From: Candidatus Limnocylindrales bacterium
GTDB lineage: Bacteria; Chloroflexota; Limnocylindria; Limnocylindrales; CSP1-4
Reading direction: 5' to 3'
Assembly: GCA_035717865.1 (NCBI GenBank)
Contig: DASTIE010000177.1
Coordinates: 547 to 64,546 of the forward strand
DNA length: 64,000 nucleotides
Shown: one piece after another, positions 5,459 to 21,155 of the stretch
Numbering within the stretch: the stretch's first letter is position 1
Layout of the letters: each line of letters starts with the position of its first letter
Position numbers and translations under genes: made by a program
Notes under the pieces: model-generated
Told to the model about the DNA's origin: nothing
The model's database searches: none
What the model saw: only the letters and a program-made list of their open reading frames with translations

Positions 5459-5538
5459 CCTCTCTCACGGTTCCTCCGGCGTCCGGCACATGGCCGCGAG
5501 CATAGCCGGGGCCCCGCCGCCGTTCGGTGCGGCGCCGT

Positions 5539-5555
5539 TGCCACGGGATTGCAAC
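5539..5555 (+). promoter_or_regulatory. Motif copy 3, TGCCACGGGATTGCAAC (extends to the dyad GTTGC-N9-GCAAC), 55 nt upstream of the ATG at 5611
   Basis: Lies in the cmk / Gly-rich gene intergenic region and is oriented toward the + strand gene. Confidence 0.45.
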
Positions 5556-5610
5556 AGCCATCGGAGACCCTTCGCAGCATGAGCCGTATGCCCGCCCGGA
5601 GGACCGCAGG

Positions 5611-6981
5611 ATGAACCGCAGAAGCAGCTCCGCGCAGCGGCGGCTTGCCGTCGTGACCGTTGCGGGACTCATGGCGCTCGCGCCCGCGCCGTCGGCCTTC
5701 GCAACGGAGCAGGTCACCTTCTCCACGACCGGCGCCGAGCAGACGTGGATCGTCCCCAGCGGCGTCTCAGCCATTCACGTCGTCCTGATCGGGGGCCGAG
5801 GTGGCGATGCGGTGAGCGGCAGCGGCTTCGGCCACGCGGTTTCGGGCGACCTCGCGGTGACAGCGGGCATGACCCTCTACGTTGAAGTGGGCGGCAATGG
5901 AGCCAACTCGATCGGGCTCCCAGGAGCAGCGGGCGGATTCAACGGCGGCGGCGCGGGCGGCTCGGGCACGGGCAATGCCGGAGCGGGCGGTGGCGGCGCC
6001 AGCGATATCCGGACCGTGAGCGACACGGCTCCTGACACCCTTGATTCCCGCCTCATCGTCGCGGGCGGCGGCGGCGGTCGCGGCGGCGGTGCCGGGGCGG
6101 GCGCCGGCCTGGGAGGATCCGCCGGTGCGGCGGGCGGCGATGGACCCTCGACGTTCGGGTCACCCGGACTCGGCGGTGGAGCAGGAACAAGCTCGGCCGG
6201 CGGTGCGGGAGGAGCGGCCGGCGGTACGAGCGACAGTGCCGGGACCGACGGCGCGGAGGGGTCGGGCGGCACGGGAGGCAATCAGACAACCGGCACCGTG
6301 GGCAACAACGGTGGTGGTGGTGGCGGCGGTGGCGGCGGGTTCCACGGCGGCGGCGGCGGCGGAGCCGGTGCAGGTGGTGGTGGCGGCGGCGGTGGTGGGT
6401 CGAGCTACGTCGGCGCAGCCACGGGGGCATTCATCTCGCCAGACACGGCGGGCGTCCCGTCGATCACGATCAGCTATGAGGTCGGTCCGGATACGCCGCC
6501 CGATCCGACGCCGGGCGGCGACACCGGCACCGTTGACGCGGCGATCTCCATGGCCGACGCCGCGCTCTGTCTCGAGCTCTCGACGACGAGCATCGACTTC
6601 GGCGATCGGCAGTTCGGCGACGAGGGCGTCCGGGGGACTCCGGACCTGAACGTCACGAACTGCGGAGAGATGCCGACGACGCTGCTCGCGCGAGGAACGG
6701 ACGCCTCCGCGACGGATGCCTCATGGAACCTCGTGAAGAACAACGCCACGTGCGATGACACGCTCGGCATCGACAACTACCACCTGGCTCTCCAGGAGGG
6801 CGTGTCGGGCAGCACGGCCGTGTGGCAGCTCGGCACGTCGAACACGGAGCTCCTTGAGGTGCCTGCCGGGATCTTCGCGCCCTTCTGGCCGACGATCGAT
6901 GCCGCCTGTCCGGGCAGCTCCGGTGGCGGCCAGGAGATGGAGATGCAGATCGTGTTCGTGGCGACGGAGCCTGCGCCGTGA
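5611..6981 (+). CDS. Secreted glycine-rich protein (ALK/LTK-type glycine-rich domain family-like)
   Basis: The ATG at 5611 is preceded by GGAGGA. MNRRSSSAQRRLAVVTVAGLMALAPAPSAFA is a signal peptide. The EQTWIVPSGVSAIHVVLIGGRGGDA..G-rich pattern is present, with long poly-Gly tracts. A non-repetitive C-terminal domain follows. Confidence 0.65.
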   Translation: MNRRSSSAQRRLAVVTVAGLMALAPAPSAFATEQVTFSTTGAEQTWIVPSGVSAIHVVLIGGRGGDAVSGSGFGHAVSGDLAVTAGMTLYVEVGGNGANSIGLPGAAGGFNGGGAGGSGTGNAGAGGGGASDIRTVSDTAPDTLDSRLIVAGGGGGRGGGAGAGAGLGGSAGAAGGDGPSTFGSPGLGGGAGTSSAGGAGGAAGGTSDSAGTDGAEGSGGTGGNQTTGTVGNNGGGGGGGGGGFHGGGGGGAGAGGGGGGGGGSSYVGAATGAFISPDTAGVPSITISYEVGPDTPPDPTPGGDTGTVDAAISMADAALCLELSTTSIDFGDRQFGDEGVRGTPDLNVTNCGEMPTTLLARGTDASATDASWNLVKNNATCDDTLGIDNYHLALQEGVSGSTAVWQLGTSNTELLEVPAGIFAPFWPTIDAACPGSSGGGQEMEMQIVFVATEPAP

Positions 6982-7034
6982 TCGATCGTCGCACCTTGTC
7001 ATCCGGCCCCGCGGCCGCCCAGGCGCTCGGATCG

Positions 7035-7057
7035 CTATTGCGCACTTGCTCAATTAG
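7035..7057 (+). promoter_or_regulatory. Putative TetR-type operator CTATTG-N10-CAATTAG overlapping the pot operon promoter
   Basis: Near-identical to the perfect palindrome CTATTG-N10-CAATAG at 19072-19093. It is followed by TAGGGT ~15 nt before the potA start. Confidence 0.45.
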
Positions 7058-7074
7058 GGTACTCTCGGCGGGTC

Positions 7075-8244
7075 GTGATGCTCGCGCAGGCGCCTCAGGG
7101 CGACGTCAGGGCTGACCACCGGCCGGAGCCCCAGCCGGAGATCGCGCTCGATCGACTGACCAAGCGGTTCGGCGATGTGGTGGCGGTCGACGACATCTCC
7201 CTGACCATCCGCAGCGGCGAGTTCTTCTCGCTGCTGGGACCGTCCGGCTGCGGCAAGACGACGACGCTCCGGATGATCGGCGGCTTCGACCTGCCGAGCA
7301 GCGGACGGATCGACCTGCGGGGCCGCGACGTGACCCGGGAGCCGCCGGACAAGCGCCCGGTCAACATGGTCTTCCAGAGCTACGCCCTGTTCCCGCACCT
7401 CGACGTCGCGGGCAACATCGCCTTCGGGCTGAAGCGGCGCGGCGTGGACGCCGCGGAGATACGACGTCGCACGGGCGAGATCCTCGAGAAGGTCCACCTG
7501 CCGGGCTACGAGAAGCGGCGCACCAACCAGCTCTCGGGCGGGCAGCCGCAGCGCGTCGCGCTCGCGCGGGCGCTCGTGAACGAGCCCAACGTGCTCCTCC
7601 TGGACGAGCCGCTCGGAGCGCTGGACCTGAAGCTCCGCAAGCGCCTCCAGCTGGAGCTGAAGCGGATCCAGATGGCCGTCGGGATCACCTTCGTCTACGT
7701 GACTCACGACCAGGAGGAGGCGCTCACGATGAGCGACCGGATCGCGGTCATGCATCGCGGGAAGGTCGAGCAGGTCGGGACGCCGGAGGACCTCTACGAC
7801 CGGCCGCGGACGCCGTTCGTTGCCGACTTCATCGGCACGACGAACCTGCTGGCCGGCACGGTGACGGCCCTGCGCGACGGCGAATCCCTGATCCGCCTCG
7901 ACTCCGGCGACACATGTATCGCGGGCGCCGAGCGCTGCGTTCCGGGGCAGTCGATTCAGTTCAGCGTGCGTCCCGAGGCGATCCGGGTCGAGCGAGCGGA
8001 GGACCGCCCGGCCGACGTGTCGGGGGGCAACCGGAGCCGGCTGCTCGGCGCAATCGAGCAGGTCGCCTACCTCGGGTCGGCCGTCCAGTACCACATTCGA
8101 ACGGAAGGAGGCCTCGGCGTGTCGGTGCTCACATCCAGGTCGGGCCCGAGATTCGAATCCGGCAGCAAGGTCGTGCTTGCTTGGTCGCCTGCCGATGCCC
8201 TGATCCTGGGCGATCGGTCCAGCGAGATGGAGGATGCGTCATGA
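7075..8244 (+). CDS. potA: Spermidine/putrescine-type ABC transporter ATP-binding protein
   Basis: Walker A GPSGCGKTT, ABC signature LSGGQ, Walker B LLLDEP, and a C-terminal TOBE-like regulatory domain. Confidence 0.85.
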   Translation: MMLAQAPQGDVRADHRPEPQPEIALDRLTKRFGDVVAVDDISLTIRSGEFFSLLGPSGCGKTTTLRMIGGFDLPSSGRIDLRGRDVTREPPDKRPVNMVFQSYALFPHLDVAGNIAFGLKRRGVDAAEIRRRTGEILEKVHLPGYEKRRTNQLSGGQPQRVALARALVNEPNVLLLDEPLGALDLKLRKRLQLELKRIQMAVGITFVYVTHDQEEALTMSDRIAVMHRGKVEQVGTPEDLYDRPRTPFVADFIGTTNLLAGTVTALRDGESLIRLDSGDTCIAGAERCVPGQSIQFSVRPEAIRVERAEDRPADVSGGNRSRLLGAIEQVAYLGSAVQYHIRTEGGLGVSVLTSRSGPRFESGSKVVLAWSPADALILGDRSSEMEDAS

Positions 8245-9473
8245 CCGGAGACAGCAGGACGCCAGGGCGAGAGACGCCGTTCGACCTCGCGCTCGGGAAG
8301 CGCCTCACGGAGGCGCAATGGACCCGACGCGAGTTCATGGCGCGGGTCGCCGCGTTCGGGCTCACCGCGGCGCTCACCCAGCTCCTGGTCGCGTGCGGCC
8401 AGGCCGGCGCCAGCCCGTCGGCAGCCCCCGCGACGGCGACACCCGCGCCGGCCGGGACGATCGCCGCCGTCGCGACGCCGACGGCCGCACCCACGCCGAT
8501 CCCCGATCCGGAGCCGGAGCTCAACGTCTACAACTGGCTGGACTACATCGGCGACGGCGTCATCGAGTCGTTCGAGGAGAAGTACCCCGTCAAGGTCAAC
8601 TACGAGCTGTTCGACGACATCTACGCCGCGTACGAGAAGCTCGGTGACGACGGCAACGGCTACGACGTGTCCTTCCCGATCGGGGTCGACGTGCCCTCGT
8701 TCCGCGAGGCCGGCACGCTCCTGAAGCTCGACCAGTCGCTGATCCCGAACCTCGCCAACCTGGGACCCGAATGGTCGAACCCGGGCTACGACCCGGGCAA
8801 CCAGTACTCGGTCCCGTATGTCTGGTGGACGACGGGCATCGGCTACGACACGACCCGCCTGGAGGAGGTCCCCACGAGCTCCAACGTTCTGTGGGACCCG
8901 CGCTACAGGAACCACATCTCGCTCATGGACGACTACCAGGAGACGATGGGCCTGACCCTCATCCAGAAGGGCTTCTCTGCGAACACGACGGATCCAGCCG
9001 AGCTGGACCAGGCGATCGCGCGTCTGACCGAGGGCAAGCCGATCGTCCGGACCTGGACGAACGACACCATCTCGGCGATGACCGGCGGGGACATCTGGGT
9101 CGGCATGATCTGGGGCTCGGACCTGTACCAGATCTCGCTCGAGAACGAGAACATCGCGTACTTCATCCCGCAGGAGGGTGGCGTGCGAGGCTCGGACACG
9201 ATGGCGATCTACTCAGGGGCCGAGCATCCCATCGCGGCCCATCTGTTCATCAACCACATGCTCGACGCGCAGGTCAGCGCGGCGAACACGAACTTCATCG
9301 GCTACATGGGCCCGAACCTCGCGGCACAGGAGTTCATCGACGAGGCCATCCTCAACGACCCCGCGGTGAACCCGGACAAGGCGATCCTCGACAAGCTCGA
9401 GGAGCTGCTGGACCTGCCCAACGACGTCGACAAGCTGTACCTGGACCGCTGGCAGGCGTACCGGGCCGGCTGA
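8241..9473 (+). CDS. ABC transporter periplasmic substrate-binding lipoprotein (PotD/PotF-like)
   Basis: ATGA overlap with the potA stop. Signal peptide with lipobox (LLVACG), an Ala/Pro-rich linker, and a PotD-family SBP fold (YNWLDYIGD, WVGMIWGSDL). Confidence 0.8.
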   Translation: MTGDSRTPGRETPFDLALGKRLTEAQWTRREFMARVAAFGLTAALTQLLVACGQAGASPSAAPATATPAPAGTIAAVATPTAAPTPIPDPEPELNVYNWLDYIGDGVIESFEEKYPVKVNYELFDDIYAAYEKLGDDGNGYDVSFPIGVDVPSFREAGTLLKLDQSLIPNLANLGPEWSNPGYDPGNQYSVPYVWWTTGIGYDTTRLEEVPTSSNVLWDPRYRNHISLMDDYQETMGLTLIQKGFSANTTDPAELDQAIARLTEGKPIVRTWTNDTISAMTGGDIWVGMIWGSDLYQISLENENIAYFIPQEGGVRGSDTMAIYSGAEHPIAAHLFINHMLDAQVSAANTNFIGYMGPNLAAQEFIDEAILNDPAVNPDKAILDKLEELLDLPNDVDKLYLDRWQAYRAG

Positions 9474-9519
9474 CGTTGCGGCGCCGATCGACGAGCCATT
9501 CGCACGACCTCGCCGCTCG

Positions 9520-10419
9520 GTGACCTCGACCGCGATCGATTCACCGGGGGCCGCCGGCCTCCGCGAGCGAGCCGGGGATCGCCTGCGCAACGCCCTGCTG
9601 GTCCTGCCCGGGATCGGCTGGCTCCTGCTGTTCTTCGTCGTCCCGCTCGCGTTCATCGTCGTCATCAGCCTCGGGCGGCGTGACGAGCTGCACCGGATCG
9701 TCCTCGATCCGCTGACGCTCGAGAACTACGCGCAGGTCTTCAACCCGATCTTCCTGCCGACGATCGTCCAGTCGCTGTACCTGGCGACAGCGACGACCGT
9801 GGTGTCGCTGGCGATCGGCTTTCCCATCGCGTACTGGATCTCGCGCTACGGCGGGCACCGGAAGACCCTCCTGCTCGTCCTCGTCATGCTGCCGTTCTGG
9901 ACGAGCTGGCTGATCCGGACCTACTCCTGGATGATCGTGCTCCGGGACAACGGCGTCGTGAACCAGGCGCTCCAGGCGGTCGGGCTGACGCAGGAGCCGC
10001 TCATCCTCCTCTACACCGACTTCTCGGTGATCCTGGGCATGGTCTACGGCTTCCTGCCGTTCACGATCCTCCCGCTGTTCGTCTCGATCGACCGGCTGGA
10101 CCCGAACCTCATCGCGGCGGCCCGCGATCTGTATGCGGACGGGCGCCAGGCGTTCCTGCACGTCACGCTGCCGCTCGTGCGGCCGGGGCTGATCGCCGCG
10201 GCGCTGCTGACGTTCATCCCGGCGATGGGCGACTTCGTCACCCCGGACATCCTCGGCGGCGGGCAGGTCACGACGATCGCCAAGGTGATCCAGGAGCGCT
10301 TCCTCGACGGGCGCGACTGGCCGTACGGCTCGGCGCTGGGCTTCGTGCTCACGATCCTGACGCTGCTCGGCACGCTCGTCGCCCTGCGGACGCTCCGGCG
10401 CGAGGTCGTCGGCGAGTGA
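9520..10419 (+). CDS. ABC transporter permease (PotB-like)
   Basis: Six TM helices; permease signature region in the PotB family. Confidence 0.8.
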   Translation: MTSTAIDSPGAAGLRERAGDRLRNALLVLPGIGWLLLFFVVPLAFIVVISLGRRDELHRIVLDPLTLENYAQVFNPIFLPTIVQSLYLATATTVVSLAIGFPIAYWISRYGGHRKTLLLVLVMLPFWTSWLIRTYSWMIVLRDNGVVNQALQAVGLTQEPLILLYTDFSVILGMVYGFLPFTILPLFVSIDRLDPNLIAAARDLYADGRQAFLHVTLPLVRPGLIAAALLTFIPAMGDFVTPDILGGGQVTTIAKVIQERFLDGRDWPYGSALGFVLTILTLLGTLVALRTLRREVVGE

Positions 10420-11231
10420 GCCACGAGCGCAACCGCTGGCTCGCCGCGTTCGCGGTCACGGTCTACGCGTTCCTGTTCGCGCCGATCGTGATCCTGATCA
10501 TCTTCAGCTTCAACGACGCGCGACGGGTTTTCGTCTGGCGCGGCTTCACCACGGAGTGGTACGGCAGGCTGTTCGCGAACGACGATCTGCTCGACGCCGT
10601 GCTGGTCACGTTCCAGGTCGCGGCGGTGGCGGTGGTGGTCTCGACCGTCATCGGCGCTGCACTCGGGCTTGGGCTGGCGCGGTTGCGCGGACGGGGCCGC
10701 GCGCCGGCGGAGATGCTGCTGCTGCTGCCGATCGTCACGCCGGAGATCGTGATGGGCCTGTCGCTGCTGCTGTTCTTCCTGCAGCTGTTCGACAGCACCG
10801 GGTCCTTCGGGCAGCTCTCGATCGCCCACGTCACGTTCTGCATCTCGTACGTGGCGATCACCGTGCGGGCGCGCGCGGCGGGCATGGACCCGCAGCTGGA
10901 GGAGGCCGCGCGGGATCTCGGCGACACCGCGCTCGGGGCGCTGCGGCACGTCACGCTGCCGCTGATCATGCCGGCCGTGGTGGCGGGCGCGCTCCTGGCG
11001 TTCGCGCTCAGCTTCGACGACTACGTCGTGACGGTCTTCAACTCCGGCATTGGCACCACGACCCTCCCGCTGTACATCTACAGCGCGATCAAGTTCGGGG
11101 TCTCGCCGGAGATCAACGCGATCTCGACGATCATCGTCGCGGTGGTGTCGCTCGCGCTGCTGATCGCGTGGCGGCTCGGCGCGTTCCGCGGCGCGGCCCG
11201 CACCCCGGTCGCGGAGCCGGAGGCCGCGTAG
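10416..11231 (+). CDS. ABC transporter permease (PotC-like)
   Basis: Start overlaps the preceding stop; polytopic membrane protein of the PotC family. Confidence 0.8.
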   Translation: MSHERNRWLAAFAVTVYAFLFAPIVILIIFSFNDARRVFVWRGFTTEWYGRLFANDDLLDAVLVTFQVAAVAVVVSTVIGAALGLGLARLRGRGRAPAEMLLLLPIVTPEIVMGLSLLLFFLQLFDSTGSFGQLSIAHVTFCISYVAITVRARAAGMDPQLEEAARDLGDTALGALRHVTLPLIMPAVVAGALLAFALSFDDYVVTVFNSGIGTTTLPLYIYSAIKFGVSPEINAISTIIVAVVSLALLIAWRLGAFRGAARTPVAEPEAA

Positions 11232-11274
11232 GGGCTGCTGCGGCCGCCTCGAGTCCGCGGCACCGCCGCGGGCC

Positions 11275-12459
11275 CTACTTCCCGAGCGGGACCTGCTTCT
11301 TCGCGTCGAGGAATGGGATCGCGGCGCTGGCAGCGGGCCAGAGCTCACCGTCCGGCGCGACGATCTCGAGCTCGGTGCCGGGGCCGGACAGCTCGATCGG
11401 CAGCCAGACGTAGCCGATGTTCTTCTCGAGGCGCGGCGACCAGATGAGGTCGGTCACGGTCCCGACGGGCTCGCCGCGGTGCAGTGCCGGCCGCTTCTCC
11501 GAGAGCTCGAACGGCAGCGGGGCCCCGGGCGCCTCGATTCCCACCAGCTTCCGCGAGACTCCCTTGGCCCGGATCTCCTCGAGTGCGGCCTTGCCGATGT
11601 AGTCGGCCGCCTGCTCCTCGACGAGCCGCTCCAGGCCCATCACCTCGAACGGGTTGTTGTCGATCGTCATGTCCGAGCCGTAGTTGAAGATGCCGGCCTC
11701 GATGCGGCGGGCCTCCACGGGCGCGACCGGCCGGATGTCGAACTCCCTGCCCGCCTCGAAGACGCGATCCCACAGGTCGGCGCCGCGCGCCGGATCGCGC
11801 AGGTAGACCTCGTACCCGACCTCGCCCGTCCAGCCCGTCCGGCTGATGACGACGGGGATGCCGTCGACCTCGGTGGTAAGGGTCCAGTAGTACTTGATGT
11901 TGTCGATCGCCGGACCGAAGACCTTCCGCAGCGTGTCCTTCGACTTCGGGCCCTGGACCTGGATCGGGTAGATCTCGGGCTCACGGACCTTGACGTCCAT
12001 GCCCGAGTTGACCGCGATTCCGCGGGCATACAGGCCGGCGTCGCTGTCGGCGAGCGCCAGCCACCACCGGTTCTCCTCGACCCGGAGCAGCACCGGATCG
12101 TTCACGATCCCGCCGTCGTCCGCGGTGATGAGGACGTACTTGCCCTGCCCGACGGCGCACTTCGTCAGGTCGCGGCACGTCAGGAGGTTCGTGAAGGCGG
12201 ACGCGTCCGGGCCGGTGATCTCGACGATCCGCTCCACCGACACGTCCCAGACGGTGACGCCGTTCAGGAGCGCCCAGTATTCCTCCACCGGGTCGGCGTA
12301 GTAGCCGGGCAGGTACATGTGGTTGTAGATGTCGTAGGCCGAGCAGCCGGCGTCGAGGGTCTTCTCGAAGAACGGCGAGCGGCGGTACCAGGGCCCGAAG
12401 TAGAGGGTGCTGGACGTCGGCCGGGCGGCGGGTCGGGTGACGGTTTCGAGGGCATTCAT
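11275..12459 (-). CDS. GcvT-family aminomethyltransferase (folate-binding; stand-alone)
   Basis: Start taken at MNALETV (12459). GcvT fold motifs (WDVS, the conserved GYTGE motif (here TGWTGEVGYEV), folate-binding C-terminal barrel). Glycine cleavage T protein family, but not in a gcv context. Confidence 0.7.
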   Translation of the reverse strand: MNALETVTRPAARPTSSTLYFGPWYRRSPFFEKTLDAGCSAYDIYNHMYLPGYYADPVEEYWALLNGVTVWDVSVERIVEITGPDASAFTNLLTCRDLTKCAVGQGKYVLITADDGGIVNDPVLLRVEENRWWLALADSDAGLYARGIAVNSGMDVKVREPEIYPIQVQGPKSKDTLRKVFGPAIDNIKYYWTLTTEVDGIPVVISRTGWTGEVGYEVYLRDPARGADLWDRVFEAGREFDIRPVAPVEARRIEAGIFNYGSDMTIDNNPFEVMGLERLVEEQAADYIGKAALEEIRAKGVSRKLVGIEAPGAPLPFELSEKRPALHRGEPVGTVTDLIWSPRLEKNIGYVWLPIELSGPGTELEIVAPDGELWPAASAAIPFLDAKKQVPLGK

Positions 12460-12536
12460 CGGGTGGGCTCCTTTGCGCTGCGTGGCGAGTTGCGCTCCGT
12501 GGCGGGGTGCGCGGGCGTGCTGGCGCCGCGTCGGGA

Positions 12537-14813
12537 TCATCCTTCGGCGCCGCCAGGGTCTTCGTAGTCCCAGGCCGGATCCGCAACGTCCGCGGTGACG
12601 ACCAGCGCATCGACGGCTATGGCACCGCCGGGGCCCGCGATGACCGGGTTGAGGTCCACCTCCAGCCACGTCGGGTTCGCGAGCATCGCCCGGCCCAGCG
12701 CGGCGACCGCCTCGGCGACGGCACGCCGCCTGACGGTCGGCAGGTTGCGCGGACCGTCGAGGATGCGGGCGCCGCGGAGCTCGCCCAGCATCGCGAGCGC
12801 CTCGTCCTCCGTGACCGGGGCAAGGCGCACGGCGACATCGTCGATGGCCTCGGCCAGGATCCCGCCGAGGCCCACCAGCACCAGCGGTCCGAACTGCGCG
12901 TCGCGGCGGCCGCCGACGATCAGCTCGACACCGGGCTTGACCATGGGCTGGACCAGGACGCCGCGCGATGCGGTCGGGTGCATGGCGCGGATCGCGCGCC
13001 CGAGCGTCGTCGGGTCGGCGATTCCGAGGGCGACGCCCCCGGCATCGGTCTTGTGGGCGAAGCCCGGCGCGTCCACCTTGACGACCACCGGCCAGCCGTA
13101 GCCCTGTGCCGCTGCGGTGGCCTCGGCGACCATGGCGTCCTCGTCATCGATCCGGACCGCGGTGGATTCGACCATCGGCAGGCCTGCGGCGCGCAGGAGC
13201 TCAAGCGACTCGCGCTCGGGCATGGCTCGCGGCGTCGCTGAGCTCGGCCGACCCACGCGGCCGTGGATGTAGCGCGGGGTCGCGGACGCGAGGGCGGGCC
13301 ACGCGGCCCGGACGGGGCCGTCGGTGATCCGCGCGGCCCGCCGGCGTTCCCACCACGCCAGCTTCGCGATGGCCCCGAACGCGGTCCGCGTGCCGCGGAG
13401 GATCGGCACCCCGCCCGCGGCGTCCATCTGGGCCTCCACCTCTTGCGTCACGTCGCCGGAGGTGAGCGAGACGAAGACGGGCAGGACCTGCGGCGCCTCG
13501 GCCGTCGCGGCGACGAGCTCCGCGCCCAGCTCCACGGCCAGTGCCACTTCGCCCGGCTGCGAGCGGTACGGGAAATCATGGACCAGTGCGACGACGTCGT
13601 AGGCGCCGCTCGCGACGAACGCCTCGAAGCAGGCACGGTACGTCGGGGCGCCTTCGTCGGCGCCCCACGGGTCCAGCGGGTTCTCGATGTGGGTGAGCGT
13701 CGGGAGGGCCTGGGCGATCCGGGCGCGAGCCTCCGCGGGGATCGGCGGCAGGTCCAACCCGAGCGTGGGCGCGAGGTCGGCGACCAGGGAGCCCTCACCG
13801 GTCGAGACGGTCAGGACGCCCGTCCGTCCCTTCCCCACCCCGCGCCCCAGGCGCCGAGCCCGGCTCGCCAGCGCGGCAGCCTCGATGAGGTCGTCGAGGT
13901 CGTCGAACCGGACGACGCCCGCGGCCCGGAGCGCGGCATCGACCGCGCGGTCGTCGCCGGCGAGGTTGCCGGTGTGGGCCACGGCGGCCGCACGTGCCTG
14001 CGAGCTCCGCCCGACCTTCAGCGCGAGGATCGGCTTGCCCTCCGCCAGCGCCCGGTCCGCGAGAGCCAGGAAACGCTCCGGCCGCTTGAAGCCCTCGACG
14101 AACAGGACGATCGAGTCCGTGTGGGGATCGTCGAGGCATGCGGCGAGGTGGTCGCAGAGGTCGAGGACGGCTTCCGAGCCGACGCTGACGATCCGGCTCC
14201 AGCCGATCCGCGTGCCGGCGTGGACGAACGCGTCCGTCACGCTCCCGGACTGGGCGATCGCCGCGGTGCCGCCGCGGCGCAGGTTCGGCGGCAGGTCGTC
14301 GATGTACGTCGCGGACGGCGCCGTGAGGTCGACGAGGCCCATGCAGTTCGGGCCGAGGAGCGCGATGCCGGCCTCGCGGGCGATCGCGGCGACCTCGCGC
14401 TGCATCGCCGCGGCAGGCTCCCCGCCCTCCACGATCCCGCCGCCCGGGATGATCACGGCGCGTACGCCCGCCGCCGCTACCTCGCGAACGACGCCCGCGG
14501 CGCGCAGCGGGTTCAGGGCCACGACGACCGCGTCGGGCACCTCCGGCAGGCCGGCGAGATCCGGGTAGGCGGGACTGCCGTCGATCTCCTCGTAGCGGGG
14601 ATTCACGAAGAAGCAGCGGGTCTCGCTCCCGACCTTGGCGATGTTGTCCCGCATGGTCCGCGCGAGGTCGGAACGCGGCGACGCGCCCACGACCGCCACG
14701 GAGCGGGGCGCGTACAGCGGGCGGAGGTCGATCTCCGGGTGCCGCGCGGCGCCCGGTGTCGTGGCCTCGCTCGCCTTCGCGGTCTCGCCCGTCGCCCCCG
14801 CCGCCGCGCTCAT
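12537..14813 (-). CDS. Acyl-CoA synthetase (NDP/ADP-forming), fused alpha+beta domains
   Basis: N-terminal CoA-binding domain (VAVVGAS..NPR), a succinyl-CoA-synthetase-like alpha domain and an ATP-grasp domain. ATGA overlap with the upstream ACAD stop. Confidence 0.75.
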   Translation of the reverse strand: MSAAAGATGETAKASEATTPGAARHPEIDLRPLYAPRSVAVVGASPRSDLARTMRDNIAKVGSETRCFFVNPRYEEIDGSPAYPDLAGLPEVPDAVVVALNPLRAAGVVREVAAAGVRAVIIPGGGIVEGGEPAAAMQREVAAIAREAGIALLGPNCMGLVDLTAPSATYIDDLPPNLRRGGTAAIAQSGSVTDAFVHAGTRIGWSRIVSVGSEAVLDLCDHLAACLDDPHTDSIVLFVEGFKRPERFLALADRALAEGKPILALKVGRSSQARAAAVAHTGNLAGDDRAVDAALRAAGVVRFDDLDDLIEAAALASRARRLGRGVGKGRTGVLTVSTGEGSLVADLAPTLGLDLPPIPAEARARIAQALPTLTHIENPLDPWGADEGAPTYRACFEAFVASGAYDVVALVHDFPYRSQPGEVALAVELGAELVAATAEAPQVLPVFVSLTSGDVTQEVEAQMDAAGGVPILRGTRTAFGAIAKLAWWERRRAARITDGPVRAAWPALASATPRYIHGRVGRPSSATPRAMPERESLELLRAAGLPMVESTAVRIDDEDAMVAEATAAAQGYGWPVVVKVDAPGFAHKTDAGGVALGIADPTTLGRAIRAMHPTASRGVLVQPMVKPGVELIVGGRRDAQFGPLVLVGLGGILAEAIDDVAVRLAPVTEDEALAMLGELRGARILDGPRNLPTVRRRAVAEAVAALGRAMLANPTWLEVDLNPVIAGPGGAIAVDALVVTADVADPAWDYEDPGGAEG

Positions 14814-15979
14814 CCGACGACCTTGTCGACCCCGCGCCGCTCAAGCGAGCGCGCGATGATCAGGCGCTGGATCTCGCTCGTGCCCTCCCAGATCCGGTCC
14901 ACGCGGAGCTCGCGCATGTAGCGCTCGGCGGGGTTGTCCCGCATGTAGCCGCGACCGCCGAACACCTGGACGACGCGGTCGGCGCAGATGAACGCGGCCT
15001 CGGAGGCGAAGAGCTTCGCGAGGGACGCCTTCGCGTGGACGACCTTGGGCTCGACGTCCGCATCGGCCATCGCCGCGGCTTCGCGGGTCAGCAGCCGCGC
15101 CGCCGACGCGTCGGCCGCCGAGTTGGCCAGGGGGAACGACACGCCCTGGAAGTCGAAGATCCGTTGCCCGAACTGGACCCGCTCCGTCGCCCACTCGACC
15201 GCGATCGTGAGCAGCCGCTCCATGGCCCCGGTGCAGCGCGCGCCGATGTGGATCCGCTCCGTCACGAACCACTCGTTCGCGAGATTGTCGGCCTCCCCCA
15301 CCCCGCCCAGGCGTGCCGTGTCCGGCACGCGCACGTCCTCGAGCACGAACTGCGGATGCCGATCCGCGAACGTGTGCATGTAGTTCGGGTCGTCCTGCAT
15401 GGTCAGGCCGGGCGCGTCGTAGTCGACCAGGAACAGCGTGGGCCGCCGTTCGGAACCCTCCACGACCATCGCCTGCACGACCATGAAGTCGGTGTTGTCG
15501 GGGCCCGTCACGAACCACTTCTCGCCGTTGATGATCCAGTCGCCGCCGTCCCGCGTCGCCGTCGTCTGCAGCGACCGGGCATCCGAGCCCGCACCCGGCT
15601 CCGTCACGGCATACGCGCCAAAGCGCTCACCGCGGAGTGACGGCTCCAGGTACCGCTTCCGCTGGTCCGCGTCCGCGTGTGCGAGGACCTCGTACGCGCC
15701 CGGAACATACGACCACAGGCCGCCTGTCACCTGCCCGTACTGCTCATGGACGAGCACCTGCTCGAGCACGGACCAGCCACCACCGCCGACCGAGACCGGC
15801 AGCTCGCCGCCGGCGAGGCCCGCCTGGATCGCCGCCTGCCGCAGCTCACGAGCCTGGTGCGGCGGCAGCCGCCCGCCCGCGCGCTCGAACTCGATCTCGA
15901 CGGGCTGCAGGACCTCGACCACGAACCGCCGCGCGCGGTCGCGCAGGGCCTCCTGGGCGGGCGTCAGCGAGAGGTCCAC
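14810..15979 (-). CDS. Acyl-CoA dehydrogenase
   Basis: ACAD N-terminal, middle and C-terminal domain pattern (AYAVTEPGAGSD, GEKWFVTG). Confidence 0.8.
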   Translation of the reverse strand: MDLSLTPAQEALRDRARRFVVEVLQPVEIEFERAGGRLPPHQARELRQAAIQAGLAGGELPVSVGGGGWSVLEQVLVHEQYGQVTGGLWSYVPGAYEVLAHADADQRKRYLEPSLRGERFGAYAVTEPGAGSDARSLQTTATRDGGDWIINGEKWFVTGPDNTDFMVVQAMVVEGSERRPTLFLVDYDAPGLTMQDDPNYMHTFADRHPQFVLEDVRVPDTARLGGVGEADNLANEWFVTERIHIGARCTGAMERLLTIAVEWATERVQFGQRIFDFQGVSFPLANSAADASAARLLTREAAAMADADVEPKVVHAKASLAKLFASEAAFICADRVVQVFGGRGYMRDNPAERYMRELRVDRIWEGTSEIQRLIIARSLERRGVDKVVG

Positions 15980-16000
15980 CTGACGCGTCCGCTCAGGCGC

Positions 16001-17728
16001 TCAGCTGCCGGCCGCCGCGGCGCCGGCCTTCGCCGAGGCGCCCTTCGCCGAGGAACCGGACCCGTTGCCGCTGCCGGCTTTCGCGCGGTCGATCGCCTTC
16101 GCCCGATCCTTGAGCACTGCCTGCGCCGCCAGCTTGCCCGGCGCGCCCATGACACAGCCGCCGGGATGCGTGCCGGAGCCGCACTGGTAGTAGCCGTCGA
16201 TCGGGGTGCGGTAGTTGGCCCAGCCGATTGCGGGCCGCATGAACCACATCTGGGGCGCGAGGAACTCGCCCGCGAAGATGTTGCCCTCGCTGAGGCCGAC
16301 GGTCCGCTCGATGTCGAGCGGGGTCCGGATCTCCCGCTGGAGCACCAGCGAGCCGAACCCGGGGAAGAACGACTCGAGCGTCGCCTGGACGGTGTCGCCG
16401 AGGCCCTCCCTCTCCGTGTCCCAGTCGCTCTCGCGCAGCTCGTACGGCGCGTACTGGACGAAGCAGCTCATCACGGCCTTGCCGGCCGGCGCCATGTCCG
16501 GATCCACGGTCGACTGGATGGCCGTGTCGAGGTACGGCCGCTTCGAGTACCAGCCGTATTTGGCGTCGTCGAAGGCCCGCTCGAGGTACTCCATCGACGG
16601 CCCGATGTTGGTGAACCCGCGGTACTGATCGGTGCGGTCGCCGAGGGCCGGGTACTTCGGAATCCCGTCGAGCGCGAAGTTGACCTTCGCCGAGGTTCCC
16701 TGGAAGCGGAACCGCCGGATCTGGTCCACGAGCTCCGTCGGAAGCTCACGGGGGTCGACCAGCTCCATGAAGGTTCGTCGCGGATCGAGGGCCGAGATCA
16801 CGATCGGGGCGTGGAACTCGGCGCCGTCCGCGAGGGCCACGCCGGTCGCGCGACCCTCGGTCGTGATCACCCGCTCGACCGGCGATTCGAGCCGGATCTC
16901 CACGCCGAAGCTCTCCGCCGCGCGCGCAAGCACCTTCGTGAACCCGCCGTTGCCCTGCTTGTGGAAGGCCCACGCGCCGAACTCGCCGTCGTGCTCGCCG
17001 ATGAGGTGGTAGAGCAGCACTAGCCCGGAGCCCTGCGAGTACGGCCCGACCTTCGTACCGATGATCGCCGTGGATGCGAGGTAGCCCTTCAGCAGGTCCG
17101 ACTCGAAGTAGTCGTCGAGGAAGTCCGCGGCCGAGCCGGTCAGCAGGCGGATCGCGTCGTGCAGGACCTTCCGGTCGAGCTTCCGGAAGCGCGAGCCCAT
17201 CGCGGCGAGGCGGATGAGCTCCTCCGGGTCGTCGCTCCAGAAGTCCGGCGGCGCCTCGTCCATGAGCGGCTTGAGCGCCTGGAGGACGCGGTTGACGTCG
17301 TGGTTGTAGGCGTCGTACGCGTCGGCGTCATGGGCCGAGTGCCGGGCGATCTCCTTGTGGTTCTCGCCGTGATCCTGCCCGAAGAGCATGTAGTCGCCGT
17401 CCTCCTTCGGGCAGAAGGTCGTCGGCATGAGGATCGGCATGAAGCCGTGCTTCACGAGATCCAGCTCGTGGATGATGTCCGGCCGGAGCAGGCTCAGCGC
17501 GTACGAGAAGCTCGTGAACCAGAAGCCCGGCCGGAGCTCCTCCGTGATCGCCGCGCCGCCGAAGATCGGCCGGCGCTCGAGGACGAGCGTCTTCAGGCCG
17601 GCCCTGGCGAGGTAGGCGGCGTTCGTGAGCCCGTTGTGGCCGCCGCCGATGACGATCGCGTCCCAGGTCCGATCGTCGCGAGTGGCCTTCGCGCCGTTGC
17701 CGGCGCTGGACCCGTTGCTCTTCGCCAT
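16001..17728 (-). CDS. FAD/NAD(P)-binding oxidoreductase (phytoene-desaturase/amine-oxidase-like)
   Basis: Start at MAKSNG (17728). Rossmann dinucleotide motif AIVIGGGHNGL. The 915 aa track ORF 16001-18748 is a read-through of two genes. Confidence 0.7.
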   Translation of the reverse strand: MAKSNGSSAGNGAKATRDDRTWDAIVIGGGHNGLTNAAYLARAGLKTLVLERRPIFGGAAITEELRPGFWFTSFSYALSLLRPDIIHELDLVKHGFMPILMPTTFCPKEDGDYMLFGQDHGENHKEIARHSAHDADAYDAYNHDVNRVLQALKPLMDEAPPDFWSDDPEELIRLAAMGSRFRKLDRKVLHDAIRLLTGSAADFLDDYFESDLLKGYLASTAIIGTKVGPYSQGSGLVLLYHLIGEHDGEFGAWAFHKQGNGGFTKVLARAAESFGVEIRLESPVERVITTEGRATGVALADGAEFHAPIVISALDPRRTFMELVDPRELPTELVDQIRRFRFQGTSAKVNFALDGIPKYPALGDRTDQYRGFTNIGPSMEYLERAFDDAKYGWYSKRPYLDTAIQSTVDPDMAPAGKAVMSCFVQYAPYELRESDWDTEREGLGDTVQATLESFFPGFGSLVLQREIRTPLDIERTVGLSEGNIFAGEFLAPQMWFMRPAIGWANYRTPIDGYYQCGSGTHPGGCVMGAPGKLAAQAVLKDRAKAIDRAKAGSGNGSGSSAKGASAKAGAAAAGS

Positions 17729-17730
17729 GG

Positions 17731-19062
17731 TCAGGCCGTCCTTCGCTGCGGGTTGAACAGGGGGAGCTTGGAGACCTCGGCGTCGAAGTACTCGTAGCGG
17801 TGGCGCACGCCCGCCTCCAGCTTGACCTTCGAACCCGGGGCCTGGCGGTCGATTGGCACACGCGCGAGGGCGATGTGCCGCTGGAGCATCGGCGAGTACA
17901 TCTGGCTCGTGGCGTAGCCGAGCTGGTTCAGCTCGTCGTCGTAGACGTAGTACTCGTCCTGGACCGGCGTGTGGTCCTTGGGCGGGATGAGGCCCGCCTC
18001 GTCGTAGATCCGGTCGTAGTCCTTCCAGTCGACGACCAGCCCGGTCATGACCCAGCGCGAGCTCCGATCGTGCAGCTCCCGCTTGATCGCGTCGCGGCCG
18101 ATGAACGCGCGGCCGTTCGGGCTCGAGCCGTTGCCGTTCGACGCGGCCTTCCGACCGCCCGCTCCCGCTGCCCCAGCGGCCCCCGCCGCCGCGCCGGCGC
18201 CGGGCGCGAGATCGCGGAACATCCAGCCGAACCCGAGCTCGATCGGTGTCGAGCGGTCGGCGTCCGTCCAGGCGTACCGCGACGAGTGGAAGTCGACGTC
18301 CAGGAGGATCAACCCCGCCTCGATGCGCGCCATGTACAGCGCGGTCATGCCGAACGGGATCAGCGCGCGCGGCTCGCCGACCTCGAAGATCGCGTCCCAC
18401 ACCCGCAGCGCGCCGTCTGCCGGCGTCCAGACCTCGTAGCCGAGGTCGCCCGTGTAGCCCGTCCGCGACACGATCACGTCCACGCCGGCGATCTTCGTAC
18501 GCGTGAGCGCGAAGTAGTCGAGGGCGGCGATCGCCGGGGCCACGGCGGCGAGAATCTCGCGCGACCGGGGGCCCTGGACGGAGAGGATGCCCCAGGCGTC
18601 CGTGACGTCCTCGATCGCGAGGTCGAGGCTGCCGGCGAGGCCCTGGAAGTAGGCAAGGTTGGGCTCGGCGGCCGTCAGGAGGTACTCGTCCTCGGAGAGC
18701 CGCAACAGGACGCCGTCCTCGATCACGAAGCCGCGGTCGTCGCACCACAGCGTGTATTGCGCCCGGCCCACGGCGAGCTTGCGGGTGTCCCGCGCGAGGA
18801 CGCCGGCGAGGTAACGCTGCGCGTCCGGGCCCTGGAAGCGGTACTTGTAGAGCGGCGACGTGTCAAACGCGCCGGCCGCGTTCCGGATGGCGAAGTACTC
18901 GAACTTCTCGGACATCTGGTAGCGCTGGGCGACGAGGCAGTTCGACCAGTGCTCCCAGAGGCCCGTCTCGTTCCGGGCGCTCGTTCGCTCGTGGAAGGGC
19001 GTCGTCCGGATCACGTCGAGTGTCGCTCCCCTGCCCGCTGCGCTGCGTTGGACCCCAGGCAT
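17731..19062 (-). CDS. GcvT-family aminomethyltransferase, second stand-alone copy
   Basis: GcvT-like motifs (ILSVQGP, SRTGYTGDLGYEV), with a Gly/Ala-rich insertion. First gene of the minus-strand operon. Confidence 0.7.
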   Translation of the reverse strand: MPGVQRSAAGRGATLDVIRTTPFHERTSARNETGLWEHWSNCLVAQRYQMSEKFEYFAIRNAAGAFDTSPLYKYRFQGPDAQRYLAGVLARDTRKLAVGRAQYTLWCDDRGFVIEDGVLLRLSEDEYLLTAAEPNLAYFQGLAGSLDLAIEDVTDAWGILSVQGPRSREILAAVAPAIAALDYFALTRTKIAGVDVIVSRTGYTGDLGYEVWTPADGALRVWDAIFEVGEPRALIPFGMTALYMARIEAGLILLDVDFHSSRYAWTDADRSTPIELGFGWMFRDLAPGAGAAAGAAGAAGAGGRKAASNGNGSSPNGRAFIGRDAIKRELHDRSSRWVMTGLVVDWKDYDRIYDEAGLIPPKDHTPVQDEYYVYDDELNQLGYATSQMYSPMLQRHIALARVPIDRQAPGSKVKLEAGVRHRYEYFDAEVSKLPLFNPQRRTA

Positions 19063-19071
19063 GGTAGAGCG

Positions 19072-19093
19072 CTATTGGACAGTTGCGCAATAG
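19072..19093 (+). promoter_or_regulatory. Perfect palindrome CTATTG-N10-CAATAG in the divergent promoter region between the GcvT-like gene and tetR
   Basis: Inverted repeat 10 nt from the GcvT-like start (19062) and 16 nt from the tetR GTG (19109). Followed by TAGGTG. Confidence 0.5.
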
Positions 19094-19108
19094 GTGTAGG
19101 CTCCGCGC

Positions 19109-19726
19109 GTGGCACGCATGTCCCCCGAGGAGCGGCGCGAGGCGATCGTCGACGCTGCACTCGCCGTGGCGCGGCGCAAGGGACTGGCGGCGACGACGGT
19201 GCGCGACGTCGCGACGGAGATGGGCACCTCGAGCGGCCTGATCCACCACTACTTCAACTCGATGGACGAGGTGCTCGCGGCGGCATTCGAGCGGGTCGCG
19301 CGCGACGACCTCGAGCAGACCGAGGTGCTGCTCCAGGAGATCGGCGACCCCCAGGAGCTGATCCGGGCGTTCCTCGCCTCGTACGCCCCCGTCGGCGACG
19401 ACTGGGCCTTCCAGCTGTGGCTCGACGCCTGGGCCGAGGCGGCCCGGCGCCCCGTGCTCCGCGAGGCCTCGTCTCGGCTGAACCTCGCCTGGGCGGCCCT
19501 GCTCGAGCGTGCGATCAGGGCCGGCGTGGCGGACGGCACGTTCCACTGCGACGACCCCACGGCCGCGGCGTGGCGGATCCTCTCGGTCATCGACGGGCTG
19601 GCCCTCCAGGTGGTCGCACACCGCACCATCCTCGATCGCGCGGACATGCTCGCCTGGGCCGCGACCGCCGCGGAGCGGGAGCTGGCGCTTCCGCCCGGCG
19701 GGCTGCGAGTGGCGCCGCCGCAGTAA
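19109..19726 (+). CDS. TetR-family transcriptional regulator
   Basis: N-terminal HTH LAATTVRDVATEMGTSSGLIHHYF. GTG start. Confidence 0.85.
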   Translation: MARMSPEERREAIVDAALAVARRKGLAATTVRDVATEMGTSSGLIHHYFNSMDEVLAAAFERVARDDLEQTEVLLQEIGDPQELIRAFLASYAPVGDDWAFQLWLDAWAEAARRPVLREASSRLNLAWAALLERAIRAGVADGTFHCDDPTAAAWRILSVIDGLALQVVAHRTILDRADMLAWAATAAERELALPPGGLRVAPPQ

Positions 19727-19805
19727 TCGGCTGCGCCCCGACGAGAGGGCGGTGCGAGGCCGGCGCGAGCGCGACAGCGCACCGGGGCGCGACGTCCGCC
19801 CTCGT

Positions 19806-19845: not shown

Positions 19846-20433
19846 ATGCTGACGTTCCATCGCCGCCTCGCCGCGCTTCTGACCGTCGTGAGCCTGGCCC
19901 TTGGCGCCTGTGGCGGTTCCGCGGCCACCAGCCCGCCGGGCGCGGGCAATCCCACTGCAGGTCCGGGTGCGACGCCCGGCGACGCCGCCGGGACGCCCGC
20001 CGGAGTCGCGACCCAGGCTTCCGGTGCTCCTGGCGGTCCCGATGCCGCCACGGACCCGTGCAGCCTCCTGACCGCCGAGGAGATCAAGACGGCCACCGGC
20101 TTCTCGCCCATCAGCGCGACCCCCGGCCCGACGATGGGCGTCTTCGATGTCGGGTGCGAGTGGGAGCTGGACAACGAGGGCAGCGGCGTGCCCTGGAGCA
20201 TCGTGATCGGCCTGCGAGCCGATGGCGGGCGCGAGTACTACGACGACTACTTCGCACCCCCGGTCGGCGAGGGCGAGGTGCTCCAGGGTGTCGGAGACGC
20301 CGCCATCCAGACGGACATCGGCGACGTGAACGCGGTCCGGAACGACGTGATGTTCAGCGTCAGCTACATCGAGTTCCCGTCTCGAAACGACGTGCCCGTT
20401 GCCCTCGCGAAGCTCATCGCGAGCAAGCTGTGA
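19846..20433 (+). CDS. DUF3558-like secreted lipoprotein
   Basis: MLTFHRRLAALLTVVSLALGACGG has a lipobox. A Gly/Pro/Ala linker is followed by DPCSLLTAEEI..GC.W, the motif shared by the paralogs at 20430, 21156, 27037 and 31014. Confidence 0.7.
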   Translation: MLTFHRRLAALLTVVSLALGACGGSAATSPPGAGNPTAGPGATPGDAAGTPAGVATQASGAPGGPDAATDPCSLLTAEEIKTATGFSPISATPGPTMGVFDVGCEWELDNEGSGVPWSIVIGLRADGGREYYDDYFAPPVGEGEVLQGVGDAAIQTDIGDVNAVRNDVMFSVSYIEFPSRNDVPVALAKLIASKL

Positions 20434-21104
20434 GCGACCTCCGAACGACCGGCGCGACCACGAACGGGAAGGCCCGGGCGAGCCTCGTCACCAGCCGTCC
20501 ATCGGCCACGATTGCCGCCTTTGCGGCGGCGCTCCTGCTCGCGGCCTGCTCCGGGGCGCCGAACCCACCCGGCGCCCCCGGCGCGACAGGGGCCCAGGGC
20601 GGGCCCGCCGGAGCCACTGCGGCGCCCGCCGGCCCGACCGCCACGCAGGCGCCCGGCGGCGCTTCCGCGACGGCGGCTCCCGGCGGCCCGGGCGCGACGC
20701 TCGCGCCCGGAGCGAGTCCCAGCACGGACGCCTGCGCGGTCCTGTCCGCGACAGACATCCAGGCCGTCACGGGGGCGACGCTCGTGACGACCGTGCCCGC
20801 CCAGCAGCAGGGAATCTTCACCAACGGCTGCCTCTACGAGCTTAATGACGGGTCGACGACGACCACGGTCAACCTCGGCGTCATGGTGCCCGGCGGTCGC
20901 GCGTACTACGACGCCAACGTCCGCAACGCCGGCTACGGCTCGATCGAGGGCCTGGGCGAGGCGGCGGTCAAGGCCCGCGCGGGCGCAGTGATGGTCCTCG
21001 CCGGAGACGTCCTCTTGAGCGTGCAGTACTTCGGCCCGACCGGGCCGGACGACAGCACGGCCGCGGAGTTCGCGACGAAGATCCTCGCGAACCTCGGGCT
21101 GTAG
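20430..21104 (+). CDS. DUF3558-like lipoprotein, paralog
   Basis: GTGA overlap with the preceding stop. Lipobox LLLAACSG; DACAVLSATDI..GCLYEL motif. Confidence 0.6.
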   Translation: MSDLRTTGATTNGKARASLVTSRPSATIAAFAAALLLAACSGAPNPPGAPGATGAQGGPAGATAAPAGPTATQAPGGASATAAPGGPGATLAPGASPSTDACAVLSATDIQAVTGATLVTTVPAQQQGIFTNGCLYELNDGSTTTTVNLGVMVPGGRAYYDANVRNAGYGSIEGLGEAAVKARAGAVMVLAGDVLLSVQYFGPTGPDDSTAAEFATKILANLGL

Positions 21105-21115
21105 GGCCACATGGC

Positions 21116-21132
21116 TGCCACAGGACTGCAAC
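21116..21132 (+). promoter_or_regulatory. Motif copy 5, TGCCACAGGACTGCAAC, 23 nt upstream of the ATG at 21156
   Basis: Identical core to copy 4. The ORF-track ATG at 21111 lies inside the motif and is rejected as the start. Confidence 0.5.
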
Positions 21133-21155
21133 AGGGCGTCCGTAGCGTTCGGCGC

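Follow-up and report, generated by a model that had tools for sequence, protein, structure and literature searches.

The DNA analyzed here is a 64,000-nucleotide stretch (the window) of contig DASTIE010000177.1 from a Candidatus Limnocylindrales bacterium (Chloroflexota). A predicted catabolic operon on its reverse strand runs from a gene for a GcvT-like aminomethyltransferase (GcvT1) to a gene for another (GcvT2). A gene for a TetR-family regulator (tetR) is divergent from GcvT1, and a predicted operon for a PotABCD-type importer, starting with potA, lies on the other side of the catabolic genes. A 20-bp near-palindrome between tetR and GcvT1 and a related sequence upstream of potA are the subject of this analysis.

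19073..19092, no strand: putative operator O1, TATTGGACAGTTGCGCAATA, a 20-bp pseudo-palindrome with the core TTGGACA-GT-TGCGCAA
7036..7055, no strand: putative operator O2, TATTGCGCACTTGCTCAATT, with the core TTGCGCA-CT-TGCTCAA
19109..19726, forward: TetR-family regulator of 205 aa, with PF00440 and the BetI-type C-terminal domain PF13977

The near-palindrome is very probably the binding site of the TetR repressor. The control of tetR, of the divergent catabolic operon and of the pot-type importer is probably joined through one operator to which the adjacent TetR binds, and this reading in full is the best explanation of the locus. The preliminary description had claimed that TetR represses its own gene together with the importer and the catabolic operon. 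The co-occurrence of the site with tetR, its decay after tetR loss, the conserved helix-turn-helix and the prediction of O2 by a matrix support this claim, while the potA site is present in one sub-clade only, and binding and repression are what we infer from the sequences.

The perfect 6-bp inverted repeat described earlier is present: CTATTG (19072-19077) and CAATAG (19088-19093) are separated by the 10-nt spacer GACAGTTGCG, and the frame CTATTG-N10-CAATAG covers 19072-19093. The copy claimed upstream of potA is present as well. The degenerate pattern proposed for both copies fits GCTATTGCGCACTTGCTCAAT (7034-7054) exactly, but this frame contains no clean palindrome (CAATTAG vs. CAATAG); CTATTG-N10-CAATAG is found at 7035-7056 with two mismatches. 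Judging from the two sites and their relatives, the true symmetric core is TTGnnCA-N2-TGnnCAA with TA flanks, of which CTATTG/CAATAG is the outer part.

A scan for further copies of CTATTG-N10-CAATAG, with up to two mismatches and on either strand of the 64 kb, returned just these two sites (19072-19093 and 7035-7056). In dinucleotide shuffles the mean number of matches was 0.07, and 0 of 100 shuffles reached at least two; the degenerate pattern, matching exactly at both sites, had a shuffle mean of 0.02. A+T-rich words like these are rare in the window because its G+C content is ~72%. Both copies are intergenic and directly 5' of start codons (potA GTG 7075; tetR GTG 19109). When the two intergenic regions were aligned, the likeness was limited to ~25 nt around the motif, and the flanks were at the level of G+C-rich noise. 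Simple duplication of a segment is thus not the explanation, and the operator reading withstands the comparison that could have overturned it.

Conservation of O1 and its association with tetR

The comparison covered ~130 related loci in all. A search with the flavin adenine dinucleotide (FAD)-dependent oxidoreductase of the catabolic operon as query against species-representative genomes yielded 80 loci with 10-kb flanks (L001-L080), and their gene layouts were determined by tblastn of ten window proteins. Homologues are abundant in soil metagenomes, labelled Chloroflexota or 'Candidatus Limnocylindrales'. Three layouts were observed. Type I has the gene order of the window (L001, L003, L004, L005, L008, L015, and L036; also L013, without tetR). 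In type II, potABCD is forward, GcvT2 and then tetR are reverse, and GcvT1 and the oxidoreductase follow divergently (e.g., L040, L047, L050, L057, and L072). In type III, tetR is divergent from GcvT1 and the oxidoreductase, and the other genes are not there. In 77 of the 80 loci, the gene directly after GcvT1 is the oxidoreductase; the 3 remaining contigs stop at the start of the oxidoreductase.

The tetR frames are frameshifted in MFD long-read metagenome-assembled genomes (L053 at 7900-8800, also L050, L072, and L080). These frameshifts are probably sequencing indels, not pseudogenes. They depress tblastn identity and could mislead counts of presence and absence.

TATTGGAC-N4-GCGCAATA is present in the intergenic region of all 40 species loci in which an intact tetR adjoins a GcvT-like gene, and GCTATTGGAC-nnnT-GCGCAATATCG in the tetR/GcvT1 intergenic region of every tetR-bearing locus. 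Co-occurrence was counted in the 69 loci whose sequence includes the stretch 5' of GcvT1. The motif is found in 40/40 tetR-positive loci and in 1/29 scored tetR-negative loci (Fisher p = 2e-18, not phylogeny-corrected). In the one exception, L053, the motif lies beside a frameshifted tetR in a long-read assembly. The tie of the site to tetR is shown by these loci.

In an anchored profile of 44 distinct O1 sequences from different species, conservation around the motif runs from -13 to +38, and background composition is reached beyond about -17 and +40. It extends to positions outside the anchor (left side, G-TA; +9, T; right side, TATCGT). The consensus core is TTGGACr-NN-TGCGCAA, a 7-2-7 arrangement with TA/TA flanks, in which the two central positions vary freely across the 44 loci. 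The inner two positions of the half-sites are asymmetric (GA vs. CG), and this asymmetry is itself conserved. A metagenomic relative, L122, whose TetR is ~54% identical, keeps a site of 34.7 bits.

Five loci (L009, L012, L018, L060, and L062) represent natural deletions of tetR. In all of them the 20-bp operator core is scrambled, and remnants of the flanking promoters are kept at unchanged spacing: ACGGTA on one side, and on the other GTCTAGnCTG..GGGAC (L009, L012, L018, and L060) or TACCCT (L062). The decay of the core after tetR loss, together with the co-occurrence, is the pattern expected of an operator maintained by its repressor.

The site upstream of potA

A leave-one-out matrix was built solely from the tetR sites of other loci. 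Its second-best match in the window is the site upstream of potA, with 19.1 bits, and the next match has 3.9. The corresponding site is also second in L003 (21.5 bits), L004 (13.3 bits), and L005, and it is first in L036 (14.8 bits), whose contig does not include the tetR region; in L015 the matrix picks up a variant. In 1.42 Mb of sequence, the top four non-tetR matches all lie upstream of potA. Matches of at least 13 bits have a background rate of ~1 in 2.8 million positions.

Six potA promoters were aligned (the window, L003, L004, L005, L036, and the metagenomic L107). TTGCGCA-NN-TGCTCAA is invariant in them except for the variable central dinucleotide. O2 and O1 share this design of two invariant 7-mers flanking a variable dinucleotide, and the geometry of the potA promoter and the position of the operator match those of the tetR promoter. 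O2 scores slightly higher in the orientation inverted relative to O1. The potA promoter thus resembles the GcvT1 promoter, with TTGCGC as -35.

At two variant sites (L005 8712-8731 and L107 60-79) the outer flanks are altered symmetrically, with AGTTG...CAACT for TATTG...CAATA. A dimeric reader should produce such a symmetric change; the helix-turn-helix of L005 showed no corresponding substitution. In L015 (20906-20925), the sequence upstream of potA is TTGGACA-TC-TGTCCAG. It consists of two O1-type half-sites in the 7-2-7 spacing, forms a more symmetric palindrome, and is separated from the -10 box by ~20 nt more than O2 in the window. L013, which has the type I order without tetR, is also without the potA site.

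O2 was absent upstream of potA in the type II genome loci and in ~15 metagenomic potA orthologues (58-66% identity). The predicted control of the importer is therefore a trait of the sub-clade of the window and not general to the regulator. Orthologues without O2 carry GTTGCG-N8-GGGACG, often followed by CGCGTTCCC, ~40 nt upstream of a TAGGCT/TAGCCT box (L081, L083, L086, L091, L096, L101, L105, L106, L109, L118, and L072). Another regulator of the importer may bind this element.

Predicted promoters and alternative explanations

The sites are placed next to conserved -10 boxes as follows.

19097..19102, forward: predicted -10 hexamer of the tetR promoter, TAGGCT, 4 nt past O1 and 6 nt before GTG 19109
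19075..19080, forward: putative -35-like TTGGAC of the tetR promoter, within O1, 16 nt from the -10 hexamer
19061..19066, reverse: predicted -10 hexamer of the catabolic-operon promoter, TACCAT, 6 nt from O1
19085..19090, reverse: putative -35-like TTGCGC of the catabolic-operon promoter, within O1, 18 nt from the -10 hexamer
7060..7065, forward: predicted -10 hexamer of the potA promoter, TACTCT, 4 nt past O2 and 9 nt before GTG 7075
7038..7043, forward: putative -35-like TTGCGC of the potA promoter, within O2, 16 nt from the -10 hexamer; invariant in six loci

TANNNT occurs 4-6 nt downstream of the operator in 44/44 loci, followed 6-8 nt later by ATG or GTG in 40/44, and a reverse-strand TANNNT occurs 4-6 nt upstream of the operator in 44/44. 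The six potA promoters have a TAC.CT -10 box 4-5 nt after O2, and then 9-10 nt to an invariant TCGTGA start. In both divergent promoters O1 extends from about -37 to about -16, and the operators appear to overlap the -35 element and the spacer of all three predicted promoters. A scan of 6800-19800 for strict sigma-70 promoters and intrinsic terminators gave no match. Such a scan is uninformative for Chloroflexota of 72% G+C, so the promoter calls are based on the comparative conservation of TANNNT.

The leaderless or short-leader transcripts proposed earlier are supported by these conserved -10 hexamers. Leaderless genes have a -10 hexamer ~6-8 nt before the start and no Shine-Dalgarno sequence, and tetR fits this description (6 nt), with potA close to it (9 nt). 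The tetR mRNA is very probably leaderless, because TAGGCT is 6 nt before GTG 19109 and the position of the start codon is kept in most orthologues, in which it is ATG or GTG. The comparison also supports a nearly leaderless potA mRNA. The TAGG(G/T)G element that had been reported after both copies does not hold. One copy reads TAGGTG, the other TAGGGT, and most relatives read CAATATCGT; as a functional element it was rejected for lack of conservation in relatives, and the TANNNT boxes are the relevant ones instead.

The motif had further been placed between tetR and a GcvT-like gene starting at 19062. Its intergenic position stands, but the start is doubtful. Alignments of GcvT1 orthologues open at residue 17 (MIRTTPFHE), and ATG 19062 overlaps the conserved -10 box, is not conserved, and is missing in L003. 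GcvT1 probably starts at GTG 19014, which is preceded by GGGGAG. This start implies a leader of ~40 nt here; the leaders of several relatives are just 8-9 nt.

From this arrangement a mechanism can be proposed. TetR would bind the 20-bp pseudo-palindrome (TA)TTG-nn-CA-NN-TG-nn-CAA(TA) as a dimer or a pair of dimers. O1, between the back-to-back promoters, would cover the -35 and the spacer of the leaderless tetR promoter and of the promoter of the operon that runs from GcvT1 through the FAD oxidoreductase, the acyl-coenzyme A (CoA) dehydrogenase, and the acyl-CoA synthetase to GcvT2. O2 would take the equivalent position in the promoter of the importer operon. As long as no ligand is bound, TetR would keep RNA polymerase off all three promoters. 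An imported compound of the methylated or cationic amine type, or a pathway intermediate, is the probable ligand, and its binding would release TetR, so that import, catabolism and the repressor would be induced together. Such a mechanism would be standard, ordinary bacterial regulation: TetR acts on its own gene and on a divergent target, and a transporter gene carries another copy of the operator. It amounts to a well-supported regulon prediction (one repressor, two operators, three promoters, and fourteen parts) for an uncultured and very common soil lineage.

Several points weigh against the reading of a single operator shared by the three promoters. That TetR physically binds the sites, the direction of its control, its effector, and the limits of the operons are inferred, and the strict promoter scan was empty. 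The co-occurrence statistics are inflated by shared ancestry. The -35-like TTGGAC and TTGCGC sit within the motif, so that the promoters could account for part of its conservation. In each half-site the two inner positions of O2 are not those of O1, and O2 is confined to the six loci of one sub-clade, plus the L015 variant. These six loci probably share a single ancestral site, and the type II relatives have the same TetR and O1 without O2.

The last points suit an explanation in which O1 is a genuine TetR operator, but the site upstream of potA is the -35 hexamer (TTGCGC) combined with a sequence for another factor or for none. TTGCGC is plausible as a -35, and GTTGCG is also upstream of potA in relatives without the full site. 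O2 scores 13-21 bits compared with 32-39 for O1, is restricted to one sub-clade, and is missing from type II loci with the same TetR. However, a -35 element does not account for the second half-site TGCTCAAT, which is invariant in the six loci, nor for a central dinucleotide that varies as it does in O1. The rarity of matches of at least 13 bits (~1 per 2.8 million positions), the O1-type half-sites in the same spacing at potA of L015, and the joint absence of tetR and the potA site in L013 also oppose it, and an unbound O2 is rather unlikely. It is far less likely still that the motif consists of promoter elements only, either overlapping divergent -35 regions or UP-like A+T tracts, with no repressor. 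The distance of 16-18 nt between TTGGAC/TTGCGC and the conserved TANNNT boxes would fit this, but conservation with dyad symmetry extends over 20-24 bp and includes the TA/TA flanks and the CA/TG positions outside the hexamers, and the presence of the motif strictly follows tetR. After tetR loss the -10 boxes outlive the core, which argues against a purely promoter-based explanation; the decay includes the -35-like hexamer of GcvT1, a gene that is still present.

The motif could also be the operator of a transcription factor encoded elsewhere, with the neighbouring TetR binding something else. The scans covered the neighbourhoods of the loci, which leaves some room for such a factor. Against it are the perfect co-occurrence with the adjacent tetR and the decay upon its loss, the divergent layout of tetR and target, which is typical of the TetR family, the identity of ATTGGAC with the left half of E. 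coli ATTGGACGTTCAAT, and a recognition helix resembling that of BetI. Its probability is very small. A functionless relic of a duplicated intergenic segment is the least credible origin of the two sites. There are indeed two similar stretches of ~25 nt 12 kb apart, but the likeness ends at the edges of the motif, both orientations score alike, as fits a palindrome rather than a copy, and each site is conserved across species whose neutral flanks are randomised. This explanation was rejected, being effectively refuted by the alignment of the flanks and the separate conservation of both sites.

The regulator, the pathway and the likely substrate

The regulator belongs to the TetR family by its domains, an N-terminal helix-turn-helix and then an all-helical ligand domain, with 52 bits for PF00440 (cut-off 24) and 61.1 bits for PF13977, TetR_C_6 (cut-off 27). 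Its matches in the PDB include many TetR structures. As is characteristic of the family, a palindromic putative operator is found beside its own gene and is conserved along with the regulator. Across 44 orthologues, down to ~64% identity, the helix-turn-helix KGLAxTTVRDVAxEMGtSSGLIHHYF hardly varies.

The regulator is BetI-like but is not BetI, the choline-responsive repressor of the TetR family. The comparison used the E. coli K-12 betI-betT intergenic sequence and the consensus quoted in PMC12442346, according to which the betI box is a 14-bp ATTGACG*CGTCAAT overlapping -35 boxes. Both regulators combine a TetR N-terminal helix-turn-helix with PF13977, and their recognition helices are similar (GVSTGIISHYF in E. 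coli BetI, GTSSGLIHHYF in this regulator). ATTGGAC, the half-site, also forms the left half of E. coli betI-betT ATTGGACGTTCAAT, which fits the consensus of the betI box. In both systems the box lies over -35 elements between two diverging promoters, and a transporter with its own promoter belongs to the regulon, as predicted here; both traits are documented for BetI regulators (PMC12442346, PMC7876524). In contrast, ATTG and CAAT are 10 nt apart here and 6 nt apart in the betI box (ATTGnnn*nnnCAAT), so the site is not a betI box. The TetR protein of the window is 28% identical to E. coli BetI and scores far below both NCBIfam equivalog cut-offs (TIGR03384, 67.9 vs. 201.3; NF001978, 63.1 vs. 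118). The choline oxidation genes betA and betB were not found among the ten scanned genes (7075-19726). Instead of betA/betB/betT, the predicted targets encode two GcvT-like proteins, a CrtI-type flavoprotein, an acyl-CoA dehydrogenase and synthetase, and an importer of the PotABCD type, and the host is an uncultured member of Chloroflexota.

The E. coli K-12 betI-betT region (L133 100-119) contains TATTGATTGGACGTTCAATA, which holds the 14-bp betI box (ATTG-N6-CAAT). Through a tandem ATTG, TATTGATTGGACGTTCAATA also gives a TATTG-N10-CAATA frame, with spacing identical to that of the Chloroflexota operator.

AcuR of Rhodobacter sphaeroides is an autoregulated TetR with a leaderless transcript and an inverted-repeat operator over the promoter (PMC3017554). 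The leaderless autoregulated gene and the promoter-overlapping operator resemble what is predicted for the window, and AcuR governs the catabolism of a C3 onium-derived compound (PMC3017554). Its operator, however, is TAATAGAC-N6-GTCTATTA; acuR heads its own operon, acuR-acuI-dddL, and is not divergent from its target; and no further AcuR operator has been described at a transporter gene. TetR/tetO and other divergent pairs likewise have one palindromic operator region between divergent promoters, for the repressor gene and the target. The system in the window differs in having a second, remote putative operator at the importer, another operator sequence, and probably another ligand class. DmdR, the regulator of dmdA, was considered and rejected as the relevant regulator, being a GntR/FadR-family protein with unrelated boxes.

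Pfam and NCBIfam scans of the ten genes at 7075-19726 gave the following identities for the two operons.

17731..19014 (open reading frame to ATG 19062), reverse: GcvT-like aminomethyltransferase 1, first operon gene; Pfam GCV_T and GCV_T_C
16001..17728, reverse: FAD-dependent oxidoreductase of the CrtI/amine-oxidase family (Pfam/NCBIfam)
14810..15979, reverse: acyl-CoA dehydrogenase; best NCBIfam match acryloyl-CoA reductase, under cut-off
12537..14813, reverse: ADP-forming acyl-CoA synthetase; CoA-binding, Succ_CoA_lig, and ATP-grasp domains
11275..12459, reverse: GcvT-like aminomethyltransferase 2, last operon gene; DmdA-like, under cut-off
7075..8244, forward: PotA-type ATP-binding cassette (ABC) ATPase; TIGR01187, 362.7 vs. 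cut-off 355.6
8241..9473, forward: PotD/PotF-like substrate-binding lipoprotein (Pfam/NCBIfam)
9520..10419, forward: PotB-like permease (Pfam/NCBIfam)
10416..11231, forward: PotC-like permease (Pfam/NCBIfam)

The genes overlap or have gaps of up to 46 nt, save for a 77-nt gap between the synthetase and GcvT2, and this spacing fits two operons. The importer has the PotABCD architecture, with an ATPase that carries a TOBE domain and passes TIGR01187, a PotD-type binding protein, and two permeases. The other components stay below the equivalog level (PotD NF007048, 177 vs. 582; PotB, 241 vs. 348; PotC, 245 vs. 326). GcvT2 is related to DmdA without being its equivalog (318.3 vs. the NF009133 cut-off of 410). 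All remaining likenesses are sub-threshold: GcvT1 resembles the folate domain of trimethylamine N-oxide demethylase (its C-terminal domain) and sarcosine oxidase, the synthetase resembles ADP-forming acetate and 3-hydroxypropionate-CoA ligases, and the binding protein is PotD-like (NCBIfam and PDB). Together with the BetI-type ligand domain, these likenesses suggest that the substrate may be methylated and cationic and have a short acyl backbone. It is reasonable to assume from the linkage that the importer and the catabolic operon handle one substrate. The tie of the PotABCD-type importer to the catabolic operon narrows the search for this substrate. The pair of operator and repressor could be synthesised to screen for the effector, and thereby to identify the compound that these bacteria consume.

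A free-standing GcvT-like folate protein paired with a CrtI/amine-oxidase-type flavoprotein of ~575 aa is seen in the window (16001-19062) and in 77 of L001-L080. By analogy with dimethylglycine or sarcosine oxidases, the pair may be a two-subunit oxidative N-demethylase. No characterised PDB homologue of the flavoprotein was found beyond phytoene desaturase (E = 3e-17). A broader reading, which we regard as tentative and on balance improbable, is that the regulon marked by the operator serves an uncharacterised demethylation pathway. The pathway would depend on tetrahydrofolate, act on an imported methylated compound of the onium or amine type (betaine- or dimethylsulfoniopropionate-like), and be widespread in the abundant soil 'Candidatus Limnocylindria'. 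The core would be a new two-protein demethylase of the flavoprotein and the GcvT-like protein, and the BetI-like repressor would be a ready-made biosensor of the imported compound. As part of the same reading, the Chloroflexota operator would consist of BetI-type half-sites spaced 4 bp wider than in any described betI box.

Two neighbouring features were also observed. Immediately upstream of the potA promoter there is a gene for a 484-aa secreted protein (5527-6981, forward) with extended stretches rich in Gly (GGxGG repeats), to which no Pfam family matched. Directly 3' of tetR there are three tandem paralogous lipoprotein genes (~19860-21764, forward) with Ala/Gly/Pro-rich linkers, two of which match DUF3558.

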